DNA of 64,000 bases from the IMG/VR virus record IMGVR_UViG_3300029955_000004, positions 1 through 64,000 of that record; one strand, written 5' to 3'. The DNA comes from an uncultured virus (IMG/VR IMGVR_UViG_3300029955_000004). Lineage: Duplodnaviria > Heunggongvirae > Uroviricota > Caudoviricetes. The translations under genes were made by a program, and so were the position numbers. Positions 3-23,586 of this stretch are shown piece after piece. Every line of letters begins with the position of its first letter. Position 1 is the stretch's first letter. The notes beneath the pieces were generated by a model that saw nothing but the letters and a program-made list of their open reading frames with translations, ran no database searches and was not told the DNA's origin.

Positions 3-821
3 AGTGCACTATCTAATACGTTGTCTAGTTATGCTACTAACAGTGCACTATCTACTACATTGTCATCTGCATTAGCTAACTATGTTACCAGTAGTGCACT
101 ATCTAATACGTTATCCGCTTATGTAACTAATAGTGCATTAACGACTGCATTAGAGAACATTAATCTTTCTAACTATGTTACAACAACAGCGTTGAATACT
201 GCTTTATCAAATATTGATCTTTCACAGTATGCTACAAAAGCATTTACAACAAATAGTTATATTAATAAAACCGGCGGTGTTATGACTGGTCCGCTGGTTA
301 ATTATTTTACTGAAGTTAATAATGGACTGCATCAAAACTCAGCTATAAATTTAAATCAAAATAGTAGTTATGTAAAATGGAGTTCTATGTATGGTAACAA
401 TACAAATGGTGATAATTTATTTGGTATAAATAATGCCGGATCATTTGTCTGGATGACATATTTAAATAATACATGGGTTCAGAATCTTACTCTAGATTCT
501 AGTGGTAATTTAACAGCATTAAGTAATATTACTGGATATTCTGATATTAAATTAAAGAAGGATATAAAATATATCGATAATGCATTATCTAAAGTTATGA
601 GTGTAAATGGATATACATATACTCGTATAGATACAGACGAAAAACAAACAGGTGTTATAGCACAAGAGATATTAACTATATTACCAGAAGCAGTTAAAGA
701 TAATGACGGTACTCTTAGTGTTGCTTATGGAAATCTTGTTGGATTATTGATTGAAGCTATTAAAGAGCTTAAGAAAGAACTAGATGATCATGTTCTTAAA
801 GATACTGATGATTTAAAATAA
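3..821 (+). CDS. Tail fibre protein, 3' part (truncated by window start), with C-terminal intramolecular chaperone/peptidase S74 domain
   Basis: Frame is open from base 3. N-terminal ~13-aa LSxYVTxSAL repeats, YINKTGGVMTG fibre motif, then YSDIKLKKDI...GVIAQE...LSVAYGNLVGLLIEAIKEL, typical of S74 chaperones. Confidence 0.9.
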   Translation, partial: SALSNTLSSYATNSALSTTLSSALANYVTSSALSNTLSAYVTNSALTTALENINLSNYVTTTALNTALSNIDLSQYATKAFTTNSYINKTGGVMTGPLVNYFTEVNNGLHQNSAINLNQNSSYVKWSSMYGNNTNGDNLFGINNAGSFVWMTYLNNTWVQNLTLDSSGNLTALSNITGYSDIKLKKDIKYIDNALSKVMSVNGYTYTRIDTDEKQTGVIAQEILTILPEAVKDNDGTLSVAYGNLVGLLIEAIKELKKELDDHVLKDTDDLK

Positions 822-18900: not shown

Positions 18901-19671
18901 TTCATTAAATAAAGAAGTAGCATTAACAAATTCATCTTTTTCTTTTACTCTAGAAACAAAGTTAAATAAGTGGATTAAGAAGTAATAGGTAAAGTCTTTA
19001 CAATTCTTGAATTTAAGATTTTGATAATTAATTTCTTTCATAGTTGTTGTAAATGAAGATCTCTTATAAATGATAGAAGAAATCGGAATATGAATATAGT
19101 GAAGTTTGTGATCAATCTTAACAGTTGTATCTAAGATAGTTTTTAAAATAGCTTCAAATGTTCTATATCCTTGTAGTTTTCCACCAATAGGTTGTGCTGT
19201 TGTAATAGCATTATAATTAACAATAGGAAGAACATTACTTTTATTGAGCATAGATGCTAACATACTTGATCTTTTAACATTATGATGTTTCTTAAAGAAG
19301 TTTTGAATCTCTGATGTAAAAGATTGAGGTCTATACTTTAAGTTATCATCAATAAAGAATCTAGACTCTTTTTCTGGTAAAGCTAACTGATTCCATAAAT
19401 AAAGAGTAAATTTCTCATTTTTAATAAATGTATCATTTAGATCTGGAGATATGGTTAAGTGTTTATTCTGTAAAAATTGGTCAACGACATGATAAACTGA
19501 ATTATTAGGAAGTTGTAAGTTTTCAACTCTAACTAATAAGTTAGGAATATTAGATCTTTTCCATGTTGTATATTTAGTTTTAAACTGTTGAAAAACAAAT
19601 TTTTCAAGAGCAGCTTCTTCATTGAAAGTTACAATACCACCATCCTCTGTTTGAAATGTATATGGCTCCAT
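15985..19671 (-). CDS. Virion RNA polymerase beta subunit (phiKZ gp178-like), exon 1; spliced product ~1712 aa
   Basis: NGIKSRMIKQ, LASNYNK, TYAGQGGR, VLSECTPDSGKV (RpoB CPIETPEG equivalent) and LMPCAINED; 1229 codons up to the splice site. Confidence 0.9.
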
Positions 19672-19807
19672 TACAACATCCTATTTTGTAGTTCTAAATT
19701 ATGGTAAATTTTATTAAATCAAAATTTCTTTAATATAAGTTAAAAATCTTTAAAGATTATATATTTTATGGTTTACTTTAGGCCTTTTCTACTGAAAGGA
19801 TCTAGAT

Positions 19808-19948
19808 ATGGATACTTTTGATATTCTATTTATAATTAGTTTTATTATATGTTTTATAATCTTTTTATCTTTTGTCTTTAAACTACCAAAAGAAAAATCA
19901 TTGTCAACAAAATATACTCAAATTAAAAATGTTAAATACTTTTTCTGA
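19808..19948 (+). CDS. Small single-TM protein (46 aa), not in the ORF track
   Basis: MDTFDILFIISFIICFIIFLSFVFKLPKEK...; AAAGGA RBS; terminator follows immediately. Confidence 0.6.
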   Translation: MDTFDILFIISFIICFIIFLSFVFKLPKEKSLSTKYTQIKNVKYFF

Positions 19949-19952
19949 TCAT

Positions 19953-19984
19953 AACTACAGTAGGGCATATGCCCTACTGTAGTT
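19953..19984. terminator. Perfect 32-bp palindrome (CATATG centre)
   Basis: AACTACAGTAGGGCATATGCCCTACTGTAGTT. Confidence 0.75.
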
Positions 19985-20000
19985 TAAATCTATTGAAATA

Positions 20001-20008
20001 TATATTAC
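20001..20008 (+). promoter_or_regulatory. Early promoter motif TATATTAC
   Basis: AAATATATATTACTATATTGA context, nearly identical to the copy at 13999. Confidence 0.75.
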
Positions 20009-20061
20009 TATATTGACTTAAGGATGCATTAAGTATCCATTCTCTTTTGCTGAGGTTTACC

Positions 20062-20427
20062 ATGACTTATTTTCCTCTTGTTGTTGCTAGATTCTTTACG
20101 ATCACTCTTGACAAGGATGTTCTCGAACATACCAAGACTTACGAACATGAAAAAGAGACATACGAGTTCATCGTGAAGTGGACTGGCCTGACTCCGACCT
20201 GGAAAGTCGTCGCGCAGTTTAACTGCTTGATCAGAAATCTTGGAGGTTGGGCTCCCCTGACTTTCCTGTCGCTGATCGGCTTATCAGTCGAATATGGGTT
20301 TAACTCCAAGCTGTTCCTGGCGGCCCCCGTGGCGCTTAGTTTCGATCTGGTGGTGCTTCTTACCAGCATTATCCAGAAACTGAGCAATCCCATTTTTGGG
20401 CTTCTTTATAAGGAGGAACATATCTGA
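20062..20427 (+). CDS. Early hypothetical membrane protein
   Basis: ATG at 20062 with GAGG RBS; two hydrophobic segments; GC-richer codons. Confidence 0.7.
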   Translation: MTYFPLVVARFFTITLDKDVLEHTKTYEHEKETYEFIVKWTGLTPTWKVVAQFNCLIRNLGGWAPLTFLSLIGLSVEYGFNSKLFLAAPVALSFDLVVLLTSIIQKLSNPIFGLLYKEEHI

Positions 20428-20434
20428 AAGGGAT

Positions 20435-20716
20435 ATGAACATGGACGAAAGCAATCTTGTTCCAAAACTGAGGTTCGAGTTCAATCTACTGATCCTGATG
20501 AGAGATAAAGATATACATGAAAATCAGGAACGGATGATCGGACTTCAGAACATTCTCATGAAATCTACTGCTTTTCCGAATAGCAGTGATGGCATCGTCT
20601 TCAAGGAGAACATCATTTCGGAAAACGAGCGCGAGTTCATTCTTGATATCATCGTCAAGAACACGCAGTTCAAGCTATATAGAAAGATGGGACTAGTTTC
20701 TGTTGTGTTTATATAA
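20435..20716 (+). CDS. Early hypothetical protein
   Basis: ATG at 20435/20441 after AAGGGA; ends before a hairpin. Confidence 0.7.
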   Translation: MNMDESNLVPKLRFEFNLLILMRDKDIHENQERMIGLQNILMKSTAFPNSSDGIVFKENIISENEREFILDIIVKNTQFKLYRKMGLVSVVFI

Positions 20717-20727
20717 GTGGAAACTAT

Positions 20728-20752
20728 GGGGGAGAGCATCATGCTCTCCCCC
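20728..20752 (+). terminator. Hairpin terminator
   Basis: GGGGGAGAGCAT-C-ATGCTCTCCCCC, then T-rich sequence. Confidence 0.75.
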
Positions 20753-20781
20753 TTAATATCTTTTCTTTTTTATTTGAGATA

Positions 20782-20789
20782 TATATTAC
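20782..20789 (+). promoter_or_regulatory. Early promoter motif TATATTAC
   Basis: Consensus upstream of the small ORF at 20837. Confidence 0.7.
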
Positions 20790-20836
20790 TTATTTGAAAG
20801 TTTTAACCCTATCTAATGTATGATTAGGAGAGAGAA

Positions 20837-20938
20837 ATGAAGGCCGATAAAGCAAATCTCGAAGGTGTTGTTTATCTCGCCTTCGCTATGTTCGGAATGA
20901 TAGTAATCATGGTGCTCGCATATACTCCGGCACAATGA
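20837..20938 (+). CDS. 33-aa single-TM peptide, not in the ORF track
   Basis: MKADKANLEGVVYLAFAMFGMIVIMVLAYTPAQ; AGGAG RBS; own promoter and terminator. Confidence 0.65.
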   Translation: MKADKANLEGVVYLAFAMFGMIVIMVLAYTPAQ

Positions 20939-20947
20939 TCATTAACT

Positions 20948-20977
20948 CTAGGGTGAGTTCATATGAACTCACCCTAG
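20948..20977. terminator. Perfect 30-bp palindrome (CATATG centre)
   Basis: CTAGGGTGAGTTCATATGAACTCACCCTAG. Confidence 0.7.
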
Positions 20978-20995
20978 TATGTGGAGAATAATCAC

Positions 20996-21121
20996 GTGGC
21001 AAAAATATTTCTTTGTAAGAAACATGGATGTGGGCACGAACTAACCAGTATTAAAGATAACGAAGTCTGTGACTGGTGTGGCTCGCCCATGGAGAAAATT
21101 GCTGCAATATTCGGCGTGTGA
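20996..21121 (+). CDS. 41-aa zinc-ribbon peptide, not in the ORF track
   Basis: GTG start, GGAG RBS; CKKHGCG...CDWCG four-Cys pattern. Confidence 0.65.
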   Translation: MAKIFLCKKHGCGHELTSIKDNEVCDWCGSPMEKIAAIFGV

Positions 21122-21124
21122 ATA

Positions 21125-21156
21125 AGAGAGGGAGTGGCATATGCCACTCCCTCTCT
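21125..21156. terminator. Perfect 32-bp palindrome (CATATG centre), bidirectional terminator
   Basis: AGAGAGGGAGTGGCATATGCCACTCCCTCTCT between convergent genes. Confidence 0.8.
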
Positions 21157-21171
21157 CACCTTTTATTTTTT

Positions 21172-21447
21172 CTATAAATCAAGATGTTCTGATAGAGTAC
21201 AATATCCAATACTTTCATTAGTAACATTTCTTCTAATATTAACAAGTTCGCAACAATTATTATTTATAACAGTTTGTCCATCATACATAATAATTTCATC
21301 ATTACAATATTTTTTAATATTTGTAATAATCACCATAGCATTAGGGACGTGATTTTTAAAAATAGGATCATTGATCTGACACATTGTAACGTCACCAATT
21401 TTCAAAGACTTTGAAAAAGTTTGTATTTGTGACATTTCAAATGACAT
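21172..21447 (-). CDS. Hypothetical protein (last gene of the rSAM operon)
   Basis: 91 aa; starts 6 nt after the rSAM stop, AGGA RBS. Confidence 0.65.
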   Translation of the reverse strand: MSFEMSQIQTFSKSLKIGDVTMCQINDPIFKNHVPNAMVIITNIKKYCNDEIIMYDGQTVINNNCCELVNIRRNVTNESIGYCTLSEHLDL

Positions 21448-21453
21448 CCTATT

Positions 21454-22749
21454 TTAGACTGGGAGTTTAAATTTATCTACAGAAAGGCCAAAAATGTTTT
21501 TTCTACTTTCTGGCAAAGTATCAGAACATATATAAAGAGGTACATAACCAGTTTGTGATTCAAATGCAACAGCAAATAAAGGAATAAGATTTGTATAAGA
21601 CATTTCGCAGGATGAAGCAAATAACTCATCTTGAATAAAGAAACAACTTCCTCTACATGTAGATAACACAGGACAATCTTTACAATTCTCTCGTCTAGAC
21701 CAATGTGTACCAGTATTTAATTTTACTTCATCGAGTTTTGTAATATCACCGATTTTATGAGATTCACCATTCTGAGCTATGGTATTAGCAGATGTATTTT
21801 GACATGTCAATATATCCCCATTCATATTAACAACGAGAACATTTTCTGCATCTAAACCACAACCTTGTGGATCATTAACATGACTTTCAACATTAAAATG
21901 GGAAGTCATAACATTTTTTTGATTTGGTAATCTATCAAATAAACCAGGATTTTGTTTAAACTCTAACCAGTTATATAGACGTAAACTTTGCATTTCTTCA
22001 TGAGTGAAATTAATCGAATCTTTACTATCATCAGAATAAGCAACAACATATCCCATTTCCGAGAAATTGATGATATCTCTCTTAGGAAATTTATTCATAA
22101 AGAATTCAATAATTTTTGATCTAGAGTAATTTTGTTTATTAAGAACAGATCCGAAACAGAATCTACCTTTGAATTTTTCCAAAATATAGTCGATAACTTC
22201 ATAGTTAGTATCTAATGGATCATCACCACGGACGTGTTGTCCAGGGCCATCGTGAGACATAGACATGGTAAATCCATTATCAAATAGAAAGTCAGCAATT
22301 TCTTTTGTAAGAAGACTACCATTAGTAATAATACCAAAATTAGTTTTTGGCATAAGCGGTCTTAGTTTTTCAATAAGAGGTTTTAATTTTTTCCAATAAA
22401 CTAATGGTTCTCCGCCCCAAAACTGTAATTTCCTAATACCACTTAAATCTACATTATCTATTAATTTATTAACAAATTCATCAACATCGTACTTATCTTT
22501 TGTTTCAGAGTGCGCTAAGAATTTCTGAGAACAATAACTACAATTGAAATTACAAGAAATGCCGAGCTGAATTTTCATGAAATAAGGAGTTCTTGATTTC
22601 TTACACGGAGTTTCTTTAGATACACTAAACGGAACTATAACTTCTGTAGATTCAATTTCCTTAGCTGAAATTCTATTCGTAAGACTATCAAAATAAAAAT
22701 ACTTTTGTTCTTCAGTTTCCCAATCTTCACAAAGAATTTTATAAATCAT
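21454..22749 (-). CDS. Radical SAM/SPASM-domain protein (peptide/protein maturase type)
   Basis: CNFNCSYC, FWGGEPL, ITNGSLL and SHDG core motifs; SPASM Cys set GCG...GDILTC...CKDCPVLSTCRGSC...C; probable start at 22749 with GAGGAG RBS. Confidence 0.93.
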   Translation of the reverse strand: MIYKILCEDWETEEQKYFYFDSLTNRISAKEIESTEVIVPFSVSKETPCKKSRTPYFMKIQLGISCNFNCSYCSQKFLAHSETKDKYDVDEFVNKLIDNVDLSGIRKLQFWGGEPLVYWKKLKPLIEKLRPLMPKTNFGIITNGSLLTKEIADFLFDNGFTMSMSHDGPGQHVRGDDPLDTNYEVIDYILEKFKGRFCFGSVLNKQNYSRSKIIEFFMNKFPKRDIINFSEMGYVVAYSDDSKDSINFTHEEMQSLRLYNWLEFKQNPGLFDRLPNQKNVMTSHFNVESHVNDPQGCGLDAENVLVVNMNGDILTCQNTSANTIAQNGESHKIGDITKLDEVKLNTGTHWSRRENCKDCPVLSTCRGSCFFIQDELFASSCEMSYTNLIPLFAVAFESQTGYVPLYICSDTLPESRKNIFGLSVDKFKLPV

Positions 22750-22765
22750 TGTACTTTTCTCCTCA

Positions 22766-23293
22766 TCAGTCACCGGAACCGGCACCATTAGACAAGTCTA
22801 CGATCGAACAATTACAGTTACAATTGTATTGACAATTACAATTACAATTACAATCGGCTTGTATACCAGTTGTATGACTATAAGCACACTGGTTTGTACC
22901 CATTGGAGTACAAGCACAATTACATTGTACCATATCCTCATTATAAATCCAATTTAAACCATCATAACAAGCATCGTAAGTAATAACAATTCCGCATTGA
23001 GAACCATCAAGTTTATAATAATTAGGACTACTAAAATTACACACAGATTCTTGCACACACTGTCCAGTAGAAGCACAATTTGTTGTAGTAGAAGTCGCTG
23101 TTCTTGTAATACTATTTTGAGAAGAAACAGGAGTAAAATAATTATATCCTCTTAAAGATTGTAACCCGTTTGCCATTCCATAAGGAGTATTTGCTTTAAT
23201 AGTTGCCATACTCAATGTAGCATTAGAAGCGTTACCCATTAATACATCTATATCAGAAAAATTAATAGCACCAGATGTAGGAATATTTGTCAT
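22766..23293 (-). CDS. Cys-rich protein (16 Cys, CNCNCNC repeats), probable rSAM substrate and possible virion adhesin
   Basis: Cys-free N-terminal ~70 aa (IPTSGAINFSDI...LQSLRG); C-terminus QCNCAC...DCNCNCNCQYNCNCNC; immediately upstream of the rSAM gene. Confidence 0.8.
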   Translation of the reverse strand: MTNIPTSGAINFSDIDVLMGNASNATLSMATIKANTPYGMANGLQSLRGYNYFTPVSSQNSITRTATSTTTNCASTGQCVQESVCNFSSPNYYKLDGSQCGIVITYDACYDGLNWIYNEDMVQCNCACTPMGTNQCAYSHTTGIQADCNCNCNCQYNCNCNCSIVDLSNGAGSGD

Positions 23294-23586
23294 TGTTGAT
23301 TACTCGTCAAATAAAGTAACAGATCATTTATGTCTGTACTGCCAGTTTCTATTCTTAATTTAATAAGATCTATGATTTCTCCTGTTGTATCAGATTTAAT
23401 TTGTGTAGCAAGTTCTGTGGCATAAGTCGTTAACGTATCATTAAAAAATCCATAAATATCTTGTTCTGTTAATATAGTAGTTTCTATAGTACTTTTACCT
23501 GTTGTATCAGCAGCAACTAATTTAGTTTTATAGGCAGTAATAGCTGTTGTTATCTGATCATTTGTAAAACTGGACGCAATGGGCAT
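23290..23586 (-). CDS. Hypothetical Thr-rich protein (first gene of the rSAM operon)
   Basis: 98 aa; strong RBS; ATGA overlap with the Cys-rich gene. Confidence 0.75.
   Translation of the reverse strand: MPIASSFTNDQITTAITAYKTKLVAADTTGKSTIETTILTEQDIYGFFNDTLTTYATELATQIKSDTTGEIIDLIKLRIETGSTDINDLLLYLTSNQQ

Follow-up and report, generated by a model that had tools for sequence, protein, structure and literature searches.

A radical SAM/SPASM enzyme and its Asn-Cys ladder neighbour in a giant phage: a candidate pathway for thioether crosslinking of a fibre-associated protein

Enzymatic thioether crosslinks have been described in small antimicrobial peptides and in a very small number of proteins. 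Within repeated motifs, PapB joins Cys to Asp by thioethers, and QhpD is a SPASM enzyme that crosslinks Cys to Asp or Glu carbons in a subunit retained in a larger assembly. In PMC9389541, PapB is named as a beta-thioether former and NxxcB is described as linking Cys to the beta-carbon of Asn, with Ala, Gln, and Asp tolerated in its place. CrpC, according to PMC13692751, installs ranthionine thioethers on a whole 29-kDa Cys-rich protein. Here, we analyse a locus in a 64,000-nucleotide (nt) stretch of DNA, hereafter the window, which covers positions 1 to 64,000 of the IMG/VR record IMGVR_UViG_3300029955_000004 from an uncultured tailed virus (Caudoviricetes). In this locus, the gene of a radical S-adenosylmethionine (SAM)/SPASM enzyme follows the gene of a protein of 175 amino acids (aa) that ends in an alternating Asn-Cys run, which we call the ladder. 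Full-text literature searches (covering few subscription journals and no supplements) returned no paper in which a phage fibre protein with Cys repeats is connected with a radical SAM enzyme, and PMC7029224 mentions, but does not interpret, radical SAM cassettes within pelagimyophage host-recognition clusters.

We propose that the enzyme thioether-crosslinks the C-terminal ladder of the 175-aa protein and that this protein is fibre-associated, a reading by analogy with described maturases to which we give a slightly better than even chance. In this model, 1) the enzyme (a 444-aa open reading frame (ORF), 431 aa from its probable start) would act on its upstream neighbour, the 175-aa protein, in the C-terminal ladder; 2) it would form Cys-sulfur-to-carbon crosslinks (thioethers, ranthionine-type) to adjacent Asn, Asp, or Ala; 3) the product would be a structural fibre-associated phage protein rather than a released peptide; 4) the ladder would make up the extreme C-terminal tip, rigid and reduction-proof; 5) the conserved N-terminal 57-residue domain would dock the small protein, presumably on a self-cleaved tail fibre; and 6) removal of Hint or S74 domains would expose or prepare the tip. 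Thioethers are favoured because the residues preceding Cys in the ladders match the acceptors of NxxcB and because CrpC crosslinks a whole Cys-rich protein. The features involved are as follows (position 1 is the first letter of the window).

22766..23293, minus strand: presumed substrate, an Asn-Cys ladder protein of 175 aa; 16 Cys, 12 of them preceded by Asn or Gln
23114..23284, minus strand: N-terminal domain of the 175-aa protein, residues 4-60 (IPTSGAINFSDI...LRGYNYF); hhalign 97.3%
22808..22855, minus strand: C-terminal ladder DCNCNCNCQYNCNCNC of the 175-aa protein, residues 147-162, followed by a 13-residue tail
21454..22788, minus strand: radical SAM/SPASM enzyme; 444-aa ORF, probable start Met14 (22749), 431 aa
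22531..22554, minus strand: CxxxCxxC (C79, C83, C86) of the radical SAM [4Fe-4S] cluster; invariant in 26/26 homologues
21607..21861, minus strand: SPASM region with seven Cys (C310-x13-G324-x4-C329, C369-x2-C372-x5-C378-x3-C382, C394)

The association between enzyme and ladder recurs well beyond this phage. A profile scan of IMG/VR confirmed 317 relatives of the enzyme among 599 candidate stretches, and the best 80 made up the viral set; among prokaryotes, sampled at one genome per species, 397 relatives were confirmed, 80 of which were kept, 54 full-length and 26 partial. The latter are partial matches to unrelated radical SAM genes and were used as controls. Under a strict motif, which requires an ORF on the enzyme's strand to have at least three [NDAQSTVG]C units, NC or DC among them, a ladder carrier was present in 107/134 related loci (65/80 viral and 42/54 bacterial) vs 0/26 controls, and the pairing spans unrelated phage types and prophages of several bacterial orders. 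In the viral set, 65 carrier ORFs lie within 3.5 kb of the enzyme gene (281,076 residues scanned); at greater distance, its strand has two more such ORFs (180,393 residues), and the opposite strand has four (381,901 residues). Judging from these gene neighbourhoods, the Cys-rich neighbour is a conserved partner of the enzyme. An earlier reading of the letters and ORFs of this stretch, made without database searches (the sequence-only reading), had suggested a survey of jumbo phages for such co-occurrence with Cys repeats and had named homologues commonly devoid of a Cys-rich neighbour as contrary evidence; by the strict motif, those without a ladder amount to 27/134.

The 175-aa protein has 16 Cys, of which the first is residue 73, so that the N-terminal part of about 70 aa is Cys-free, as had been read from the sequence; eight Cys follow Asn and four follow Gln (12/16). 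It ends in the ladder plus 13 residues. The degenerate DNA pattern of NCNCNC occurs only in this gene across the whole 125-kb record, where the reversed-pattern control gave 0, and a 208-kb record with an identical copy of the enzyme gene has the same three pattern matches, again restricted to the 175-aa gene. Since the pattern is unique to this gene and the reversed control is empty, the ladder is not a product of chance. The protein belongs to no family in Pfam, PHROGs, or NCBIfam, and the phage Asn-Cys ladder proteins form an unnamed family defined in the present analysis. Its membership is indicated by the N-terminal 'MTLPxSGxIxFSDI...' domain, for which a profile made from 12 small carriers, the window's protein not among them, matches residues 4-60 (hhalign probability 97.3%, E 1.8e-11), and by the C-terminal Q-x3-N-C ... 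N-C-x-C-x-C beside a phrog_1802-type gene, with Q145, N149, C150, C154, C158, and C160 invariant in joint alignments with the small ladder family. The domain at residues 4-60 may dock on a fibre or serve recognition by the enzyme. The small-ladder family profile finds 157 representatives at E<=1e-3 among 1.84 billion, and the only relative of near-equal length in an index of 5.8 billion proteins is P0007, which is 32% identical and has the same ladder.

Across carriers, the ladder is a C-terminal element: it lies within 16 residues of the C-terminus in 83/110 carrier ORFs of related loci, is followed by a Hint-type start in seven and by a domain of about 170 residues, which we call SKIIC, in 12; among the remaining eight, four resemble the SKIIC type and one the Hint type. 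It usually comes after an aromatic or beta-strand-like stretch (SY, NF, RT). In 615 XC units from 105 distinct carriers, X is Asn in 363, Ala in 119, Asp in 74, and Gln in 14, i.e., one of these four in 570/615. Among 21 carriers compared with Pfam and PHROGs, six match PHROG tail-fibre families (one of them also Mtd_N), five have Hint-family matches, all below the Pfam cut-offs, and the small ones have no match. The clearest case is gp028 of Achromobacter phage JWF, a tail-fibre-type protein with NCNCDCNCNCSC directly ahead of a Hint domain; it reads ...RQNCNCDCNCNCSC immediately before the Hint start CFPAGTMV..., and the enzyme gene comes two genes later. Hence, by family assignment, the ladder is present in true tail-fibre proteins of other phages. 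In addition, a Peptidase_S74 fibre adjoins the cassette in 9/19 small or downstream-type loci examined: in six it immediately precedes the ladder gene, in two it immediately precedes the enzyme gene, and in the remaining one it is two genes away; other such loci adjoin replication or auxiliary genes. The link to virion fibres put forward by the sequence-only reading thus holds in relatives, which have both ladder-ended fibres and S74 neighbours, and would extend to the location of the window's own protein by inference from them.

The SKIIC class comprises 12 to 16 loci. Its conserved domain of about 170 residues starts with SKIIC(A/T)KL...WAADQ.YG, has a hydrophobic end, matches no Pfam or PHROG family, and may be another self-removing or membrane-anchoring module. 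Examples of its carriers are given below.

L018 9437-10315: SKIIC-class carrier
L033 9528-10424: SKIIC-class carrier
L065 4636-5628: SKIIC-class carrier

Two of the Ralstonia phages with relatives of the enzyme deserve mention. In RSP15 (L001), the 38%-identical enzyme follows tail and side-tail-fibre genes, and a strict DNA pattern for three consecutive [ND]C units finds no ladder anywhere in the 167-kb genome; therefore, the substrate of the RSP15 enzyme must differ. In RP12, an unannotated 65-aa ORF ending in ...FYDNYGSNCNCNCACTRGSL lies between ORF074 and ORF075 (L090 1345-1542, record ~82888-83085), just past two virion structural genes and ahead of a gene block that includes three radical SAM genes. 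This ORF has the appearance of a precursor or ladder gene overlooked in annotation.

The enzyme belongs to the radical SAM superfamily (Pfam Radical_SAM, PF04055, 51.4 bits vs a cut-off of 29.5). As recognised in the sequence-only reading, it carries both CxxxCxxC and a SPASM Cys cluster: C79-x3-C83-x2-C86, the seven SPASM Cys, and G324 are all invariant in 26/26 aligned homologues, and the arrangement follows the motif for two auxiliary clusters, C-x9-15-G-x4-C ... C-x2-C-x5-C-x3-C ... C. The Pfam SPASM model is not matched, Radical_SAM and Fer4_12 being the only Pfam families at E<=0.1. Its match with phrog_1802, which groups phage radical SAM proteins (E 4.2e-53, residues 38-399), places it in a large unnamed phage family; one search gave 600 family proteins at E<=0.001 among 2779 candidates. 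Relatives at about 38% identity are found in Ralstonia phage RSP15 and Achromobacter phages JWF and 2-1, and at 28% in RP12 and RP31, and a nucleotide search of phage records with the cassette DNA gave no match. PapB is the best NCBIfam match, followed by the geopeptide maturase, CcpM, and QhpD, with the anaerobic sulfatase-maturing enzyme (anSME), the SCIFF maturase, CefB, and TIGR04463 also present. These best matches are, by family annotation, mostly maturases of Cys-rich peptides or proteins, and the alignments to PapB, QhpD, and anSME extend across the SPASM region to residue 383-384. Met14 is most likely the true start, because GAGGAG lies 9 nt ahead of it, homologues begin there, and an identical database protein has 431 aa; the 175-aa gene, which the full ORF would overlap by 23 nt, is thus probably separated from the enzyme gene by a 16-nt spacer.

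A confident AlphaFold2 model of the enzyme (pLDDT 87.7, pTM 0.87) was compared with solved structures using Foldseek, which returned anSME (1.6e-11, template modelling (TM) score 0.51), CteB (3.3e-11, TM 0.52), and then TigE, SuiB, and ChlB, whereas the enzyme family profile matched TigE (8vpo, 3.7e-20), anSME (5e-13), and CteB (2e-12). The N-terminal segment YFYFDSLTN had been likened to the recognition element (RRE) of enzymes that mature peptides made on ribosomes and modified after translation (RiPPs). It does lie in an N-terminal beta sheet, but this sheet is modelled as three bare strands (15-21, 28-34, 39-41) without the winged-helix helices of an RRE.

Several observations weigh against crosslinking of a fibre-associated protein. 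The cassette sits between polymerase subunit genes, with no tail module around it, and the sole fibre gene of the window is 20 kb away. The strict ladder is absent from 15/80 viral and 12/54 bacterial loci; in 11 of the 15 viral ones, the sequence upstream of the enzyme gene is shorter than 2 kb, two have a carrier with a shorter ladder (YNCNCSKIIC) directly past the enzyme (L072, L076), and in the bacterial locus L144 an Ala-Cys run occurs in an ORF of 67 aa, yet L007 and L077 have room and no ladder. The 175-aa protein is the most divergent member of its family (pairwise tblastn to other ladder proteins gives E 0.04-0.9), its Cys-rich middle (residues 73-136) has no counterpart, with hhalign covering residues 4-60 only, and its Atlas model is poor (pLDDT 0.41). 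The tail-fibre carriers do not have the N-terminal domain of the small proteins, which therefore cannot be a universal recognition element; the ladder is the element common to all carriers, and so its region is most likely what the enzyme recognises, to judge from these alignments. Concerning the enzyme itself, all scores to named maturases are far under the family cut-offs, so that it is a member of none; no RRE or PqqD family of Pfam or NCBIfam matches it, and its model has no full RRE. The modelled fold is that of a 'SPASM peptide or protein modifier', which leaves thioether formation vs anSME-type oxidation unsettled because anSME is the top Foldseek match by E-value, level with CteB. Finally, there is no PF13759 gene in the window's 125-kb record (54% complete), unlike in many related loci.

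The genomic setting raises the possibility of a RiPP-like pathway whose product acts outside the virion, in host takeover, metal handling, phage exclusion, or a bacteriocin-like role, the N-terminal domain being then a leader. This would fit a cassette placed among polymerase rather than tail genes, the several small-ladder loci that adjoin exonuclease, DNA polymerase, PhoH, or phosphoesterase genes, and the very short carriers (65-91 aa, including the 65-aa ORF of RP12) that resemble precursor peptides. Yet, the same ladder is found inside full tail-fibre proteins, a fibre gene stands directly ahead of the small ladder gene in 6/19 loci and is cassette-adjacent in three more, the cassette has no peptidase, transporter, or immunity gene, and inspection of the 175-aa protein reveals no signal sequence. 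We regard such a pathway as unlikely, though it is the strongest of the competing explanations. That the enzyme and the ladder are a mere accident of neighbourhood, the enzyme having another target (such as a nucleic acid, cofactor, or host protein) and no relation to the Cys-rich ORF, is very improbable. It would agree with the orphan status of the 98-aa and 91-aa ORFs that flank the pair, which gives local gene order little weight, but it is at odds with the pairing in 107/134 related loci vs 0/26 controls, in unrelated phages and in prophages of several orders.

A different chemistry would be expected if the ladder were chiefly a metal-binding thiolate array, a role that can be likened to that of the His-x-His iron sites of the T4 long-fibre tip, with the enzyme performing anSME-like formylglycine oxidation, epimerisation, C-C bonding, or metal or cluster loading. 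Alternating Cys would all lie on one face of a beta-strand, anSME is the top structural match and among the best sequence matches, and the authors of the CrpA study also suspect metal binding by CrpA (PMC13692751). Against this stand the strict pairing of the ladder with a SPASM enzyme that matches thioether maturases best, the absence from the 175-aa protein of the sulfatase-type C-x-P-x-R (its sole C-x-P is CTPMG), and X positions that are mostly N, A, D, and Q, which corresponds to the acceptor tolerance described for NxxcB in PMC9389541. This makes the array a doubtful explanation, slightly more so than a product acting outside the virion, and we retain thioether crosslinking of a fibre-associated ladder protein as our preferred reading.

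If this reading is correct, its scope might be broad. Phages probably modify a part of their fibres chemically. More tentatively, and at somewhat short of an even chance, many tailed phages, including Achromobacter siphophages, prophages of freshwater and marine Proteobacteria, and the phiKZ-like giant phage of the window, could apply RiPP chemistry to their own particles: a dedicated enzyme would staple the ladder at the extreme tip of a trimeric fibre or of a small protein docked there, possibly across chains, giving a covalently locked receptor-binding tip; Hint or Peptidase_S74 domains would expose or prepare this tip; and ladder proteins would be interchangeable heads mounted on a shared docking module. 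Crosslinked fibre tips would represent a new class of virion post-translational modification, with bearing on particle stability, receptor binding, and host range. They would account for the radical SAM cassettes of pelagimyophages described in PMC7029224, and they would provide an obvious substrate with which to test an enzyme family that is large (>300 loci in viruses and nearly 400 in bacteria) and has so far gone unstudied.

The window's ORF listing has the pair within a tightly packed group of four co-oriented minus-strand ORFs of 98, 175, 444, and 91 aa. The other features of the surroundings are the following.

23290..23586, minus strand: 98-aa ORF, first gene of the cassette; 0 Cys; AGGAGAG ribosome-binding site
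21172..21447, minus strand: 91-aa ORF with 5 Cys; begins 6 nt past the enzyme gene
21125..21156, no strand assigned: perfect 14-bp palindromic hairpin between the cassette and a convergent plus-strand ORF (20981-21121)
3..818, plus strand: C-terminal part of a tail fibre with a Peptidase_S74 self-cleaving chaperone domain (PF13884, 4.8e-15); cut by the record end

The stop codon of the 98-aa gene overlaps the start of the 175-aa gene (ATGA). Upstream of the cassette, after a 17-nt gap, lies a 566-aa ORF (25304-23604) that matches phrog_2986, 'RNA polymerase beta subunit' (5.9e-127), and whose tblastn matches in RP12 and RP31 carry a beta prime annotation; a 1250-aa polymerase beta-type gene (phrog_3148) lies farther downstream on the same strand. 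The sequence-only reading was thus exact as to coordinates and right in placing four coupled genes after an RNA polymerase beta prime gene, and also in seeing no transporter or leader peptidase in the cassette, where comparison of the ORFs with Pfam, PHROGs, and NCBIfam finds neither of these nor an immunity gene. The 98-aa and 91-aa ORFs have no family above noise in Pfam, PHROGs, or NCBIfam; tblastn (E<=1) with the 98-aa ORF gives no match in loci L001-L003 and L006-L085 or in 50,697 phage records, and the 91-aa ORF likewise has none in these related loci or phage records. Both genes are, on these comparisons, orphans outside the conserved system.

The closing palindrome exists and is perfect over 14 bp (21125-21156), but its reading as the terminator of the cassette is only partly borne out: it lies 16 nt beyond the last stop codon, past it the minus strand offers only TTATT, and the T-run at the hairpin was flagged on the plus strand, on which the convergent ORF of 46 aa has its end at 21121. 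At the least, then, the hairpin is a terminator for the plus strand. Between the hairpin and the polymerase beta gene, a 1.45-kb region (19672-21124) has a raised G+C content (0.363 for 20001-22000 vs 0.26-0.29 around) and holds only small plus-strand ORFs, including the 46-aa CxxC...CxxC ORF at 20981-21121. No tRNA was found in 19600-21250, and the one Rfam match there, to PrrB/RsmZ, lies over the hairpin, is sub-threshold (25.6 vs 44 bits), and is probably due to chance.

In four metatranscriptome runs, contigs of 151-301 nt match the polymerase gene and all four cassette genes in part, at 100% identity; one of them, 301 nt long, spans the junction of the 91-aa and enzyme genes, and a second spans that of the 98-aa and polymerase genes. 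The four runs hold 7-13% of the sampled words, with 19600-21175 and several other parts uncovered. These contigs are a weak hint of expression of all four genes, being silent on transcript ends, strand, and level and compatible with DNA carry-over.

Many related loci have further enzymes. A cluster of 51 ORFs from 35 loci corresponds to 2-oxoglutarate (2OG)-Fe(II) oxygenases, with PF13759 above the cut-off in the three best-scoring members; one ORF tested from the related loci matched an Asp/Asn beta-hydroxylase (PF05118), and one locus has a B12-type radical SAM enzyme. These extra genes, which the window's cassette lacks, suggest further modifications of the Asn-rich ladder. Loci with added oxygenase, PF05118-type, or B12-binding radical SAM genes are these.

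L010: 3816-4577 and 5605-6390
L012: 7315-7989 and 9314-9904
L023: 5425-6021 and 5999-7525

In gene content, the remainder of the window is that of a phiKZ-like giant phage. Its record is a virus contig of 125 kb judged 54% complete, and the 208-kb record with the identical enzyme gene is 91% complete. The fibre at 3-818, also matched by PHROG long-tail-fibre families, is a possible docking partner of the 175-aa protein. The 208-kb record encodes a Peptidase_S74 tail fibre (399-aa open frame) at 172354-172509 (G001:C1, L181), to judge from the coordinates beyond the segment that it has in common with the window; in that case, the phage has two or more self-cleaving fibres.

Among described systems, a canonical RiPP cluster is not what the locus represents: it has neither an RRE nor a peptidase or exporter, and its flanks are polymerase subunit genes and the family-less 98-aa and 91-aa ORFs. 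The gp38 adhesins of T-even phages (PF05268) offer an architectural parallel, since they are small, encoded past the long-tail-fibre gene, and made of a short N-terminal module and a repetitive C-terminal head, although the heads of gp38 are rich in Gly, lack a Cys ladder, and require no enzyme. The N-terminus of the 175-aa protein had been thought to resemble such a fibre-tip attachment domain. Sequence comparisons reject a gp38 identity (no PF05268 match, hhalign 0.07% vs S16 gp38, BLASTP E 52); an Atlas fold search, in which residues 2-59 align to a GP38 cluster with TM 0.55 over ~55 residues, is a weak lead from a poor model.

With anSME (TIGR03942; PDB 4k36-4k39), the top Foldseek match, the enzyme shares the lack of a full RRE; grouping with these sulfatase maturases, which the sequence-only reading had seen as a possible objection, is not borne out, as the score is 54.8 bits vs a cut-off of 349.45, no sulfatase is encoded nearby, and the neighbour has no C/S-x-P-x-R. 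PapB/PapA (freyrasin; NF047865) aligns over residues 73-384 with E 1.5e-21, though at 76.9 bits vs a cut-off of 340 the enzyme falls outside this family; PapA is a short peptide that has a leader and CxxxD units, whereas in the 175-aa protein the Cys and the candidate acceptors are adjacent. QhpD/QhpC (TIGR03906) is the fourth-best NCBIfam match (61.8 bits vs a cut-off of 453), and QhpC, unlike the 175-aa protein, is a subunit of a periplasmic enzyme without a ladder. For the streptococcal pair NxxcB/NxxcA, PMC9389541 gives Asn, Ala, Gln, and Asp as acceptors, the residues at 570/615 X positions of phage ladders; the N-x-x-C motif described there lies in a short quorum-regulated peptide, unlike the phage ladder, and no NxxcB model was among the matches.

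A further close parallel is CrpC/CrpA of Methanococcus voltae (TIGR04463; Dieter et al. 2026, PMC13692751). The enzyme is not a member of that family (47.4 bits vs a cut-off of 525) and, according to that paper, CrpC has an RRE where none was detected here, the motifs of CrpA are CAGM, CAVD, and CPLV with no alternating N-C ladder, and the host is an archaeon and not a phage. The same paper gives no known protease or transporter for CrpA and no known function for its product. What the two systems would have in common is their basic design: in CrpC, as described there, a seven-Cys SPASM enzyme modifies a whole Cys-rich protein encoded next to it, as we propose for the pair in the window.

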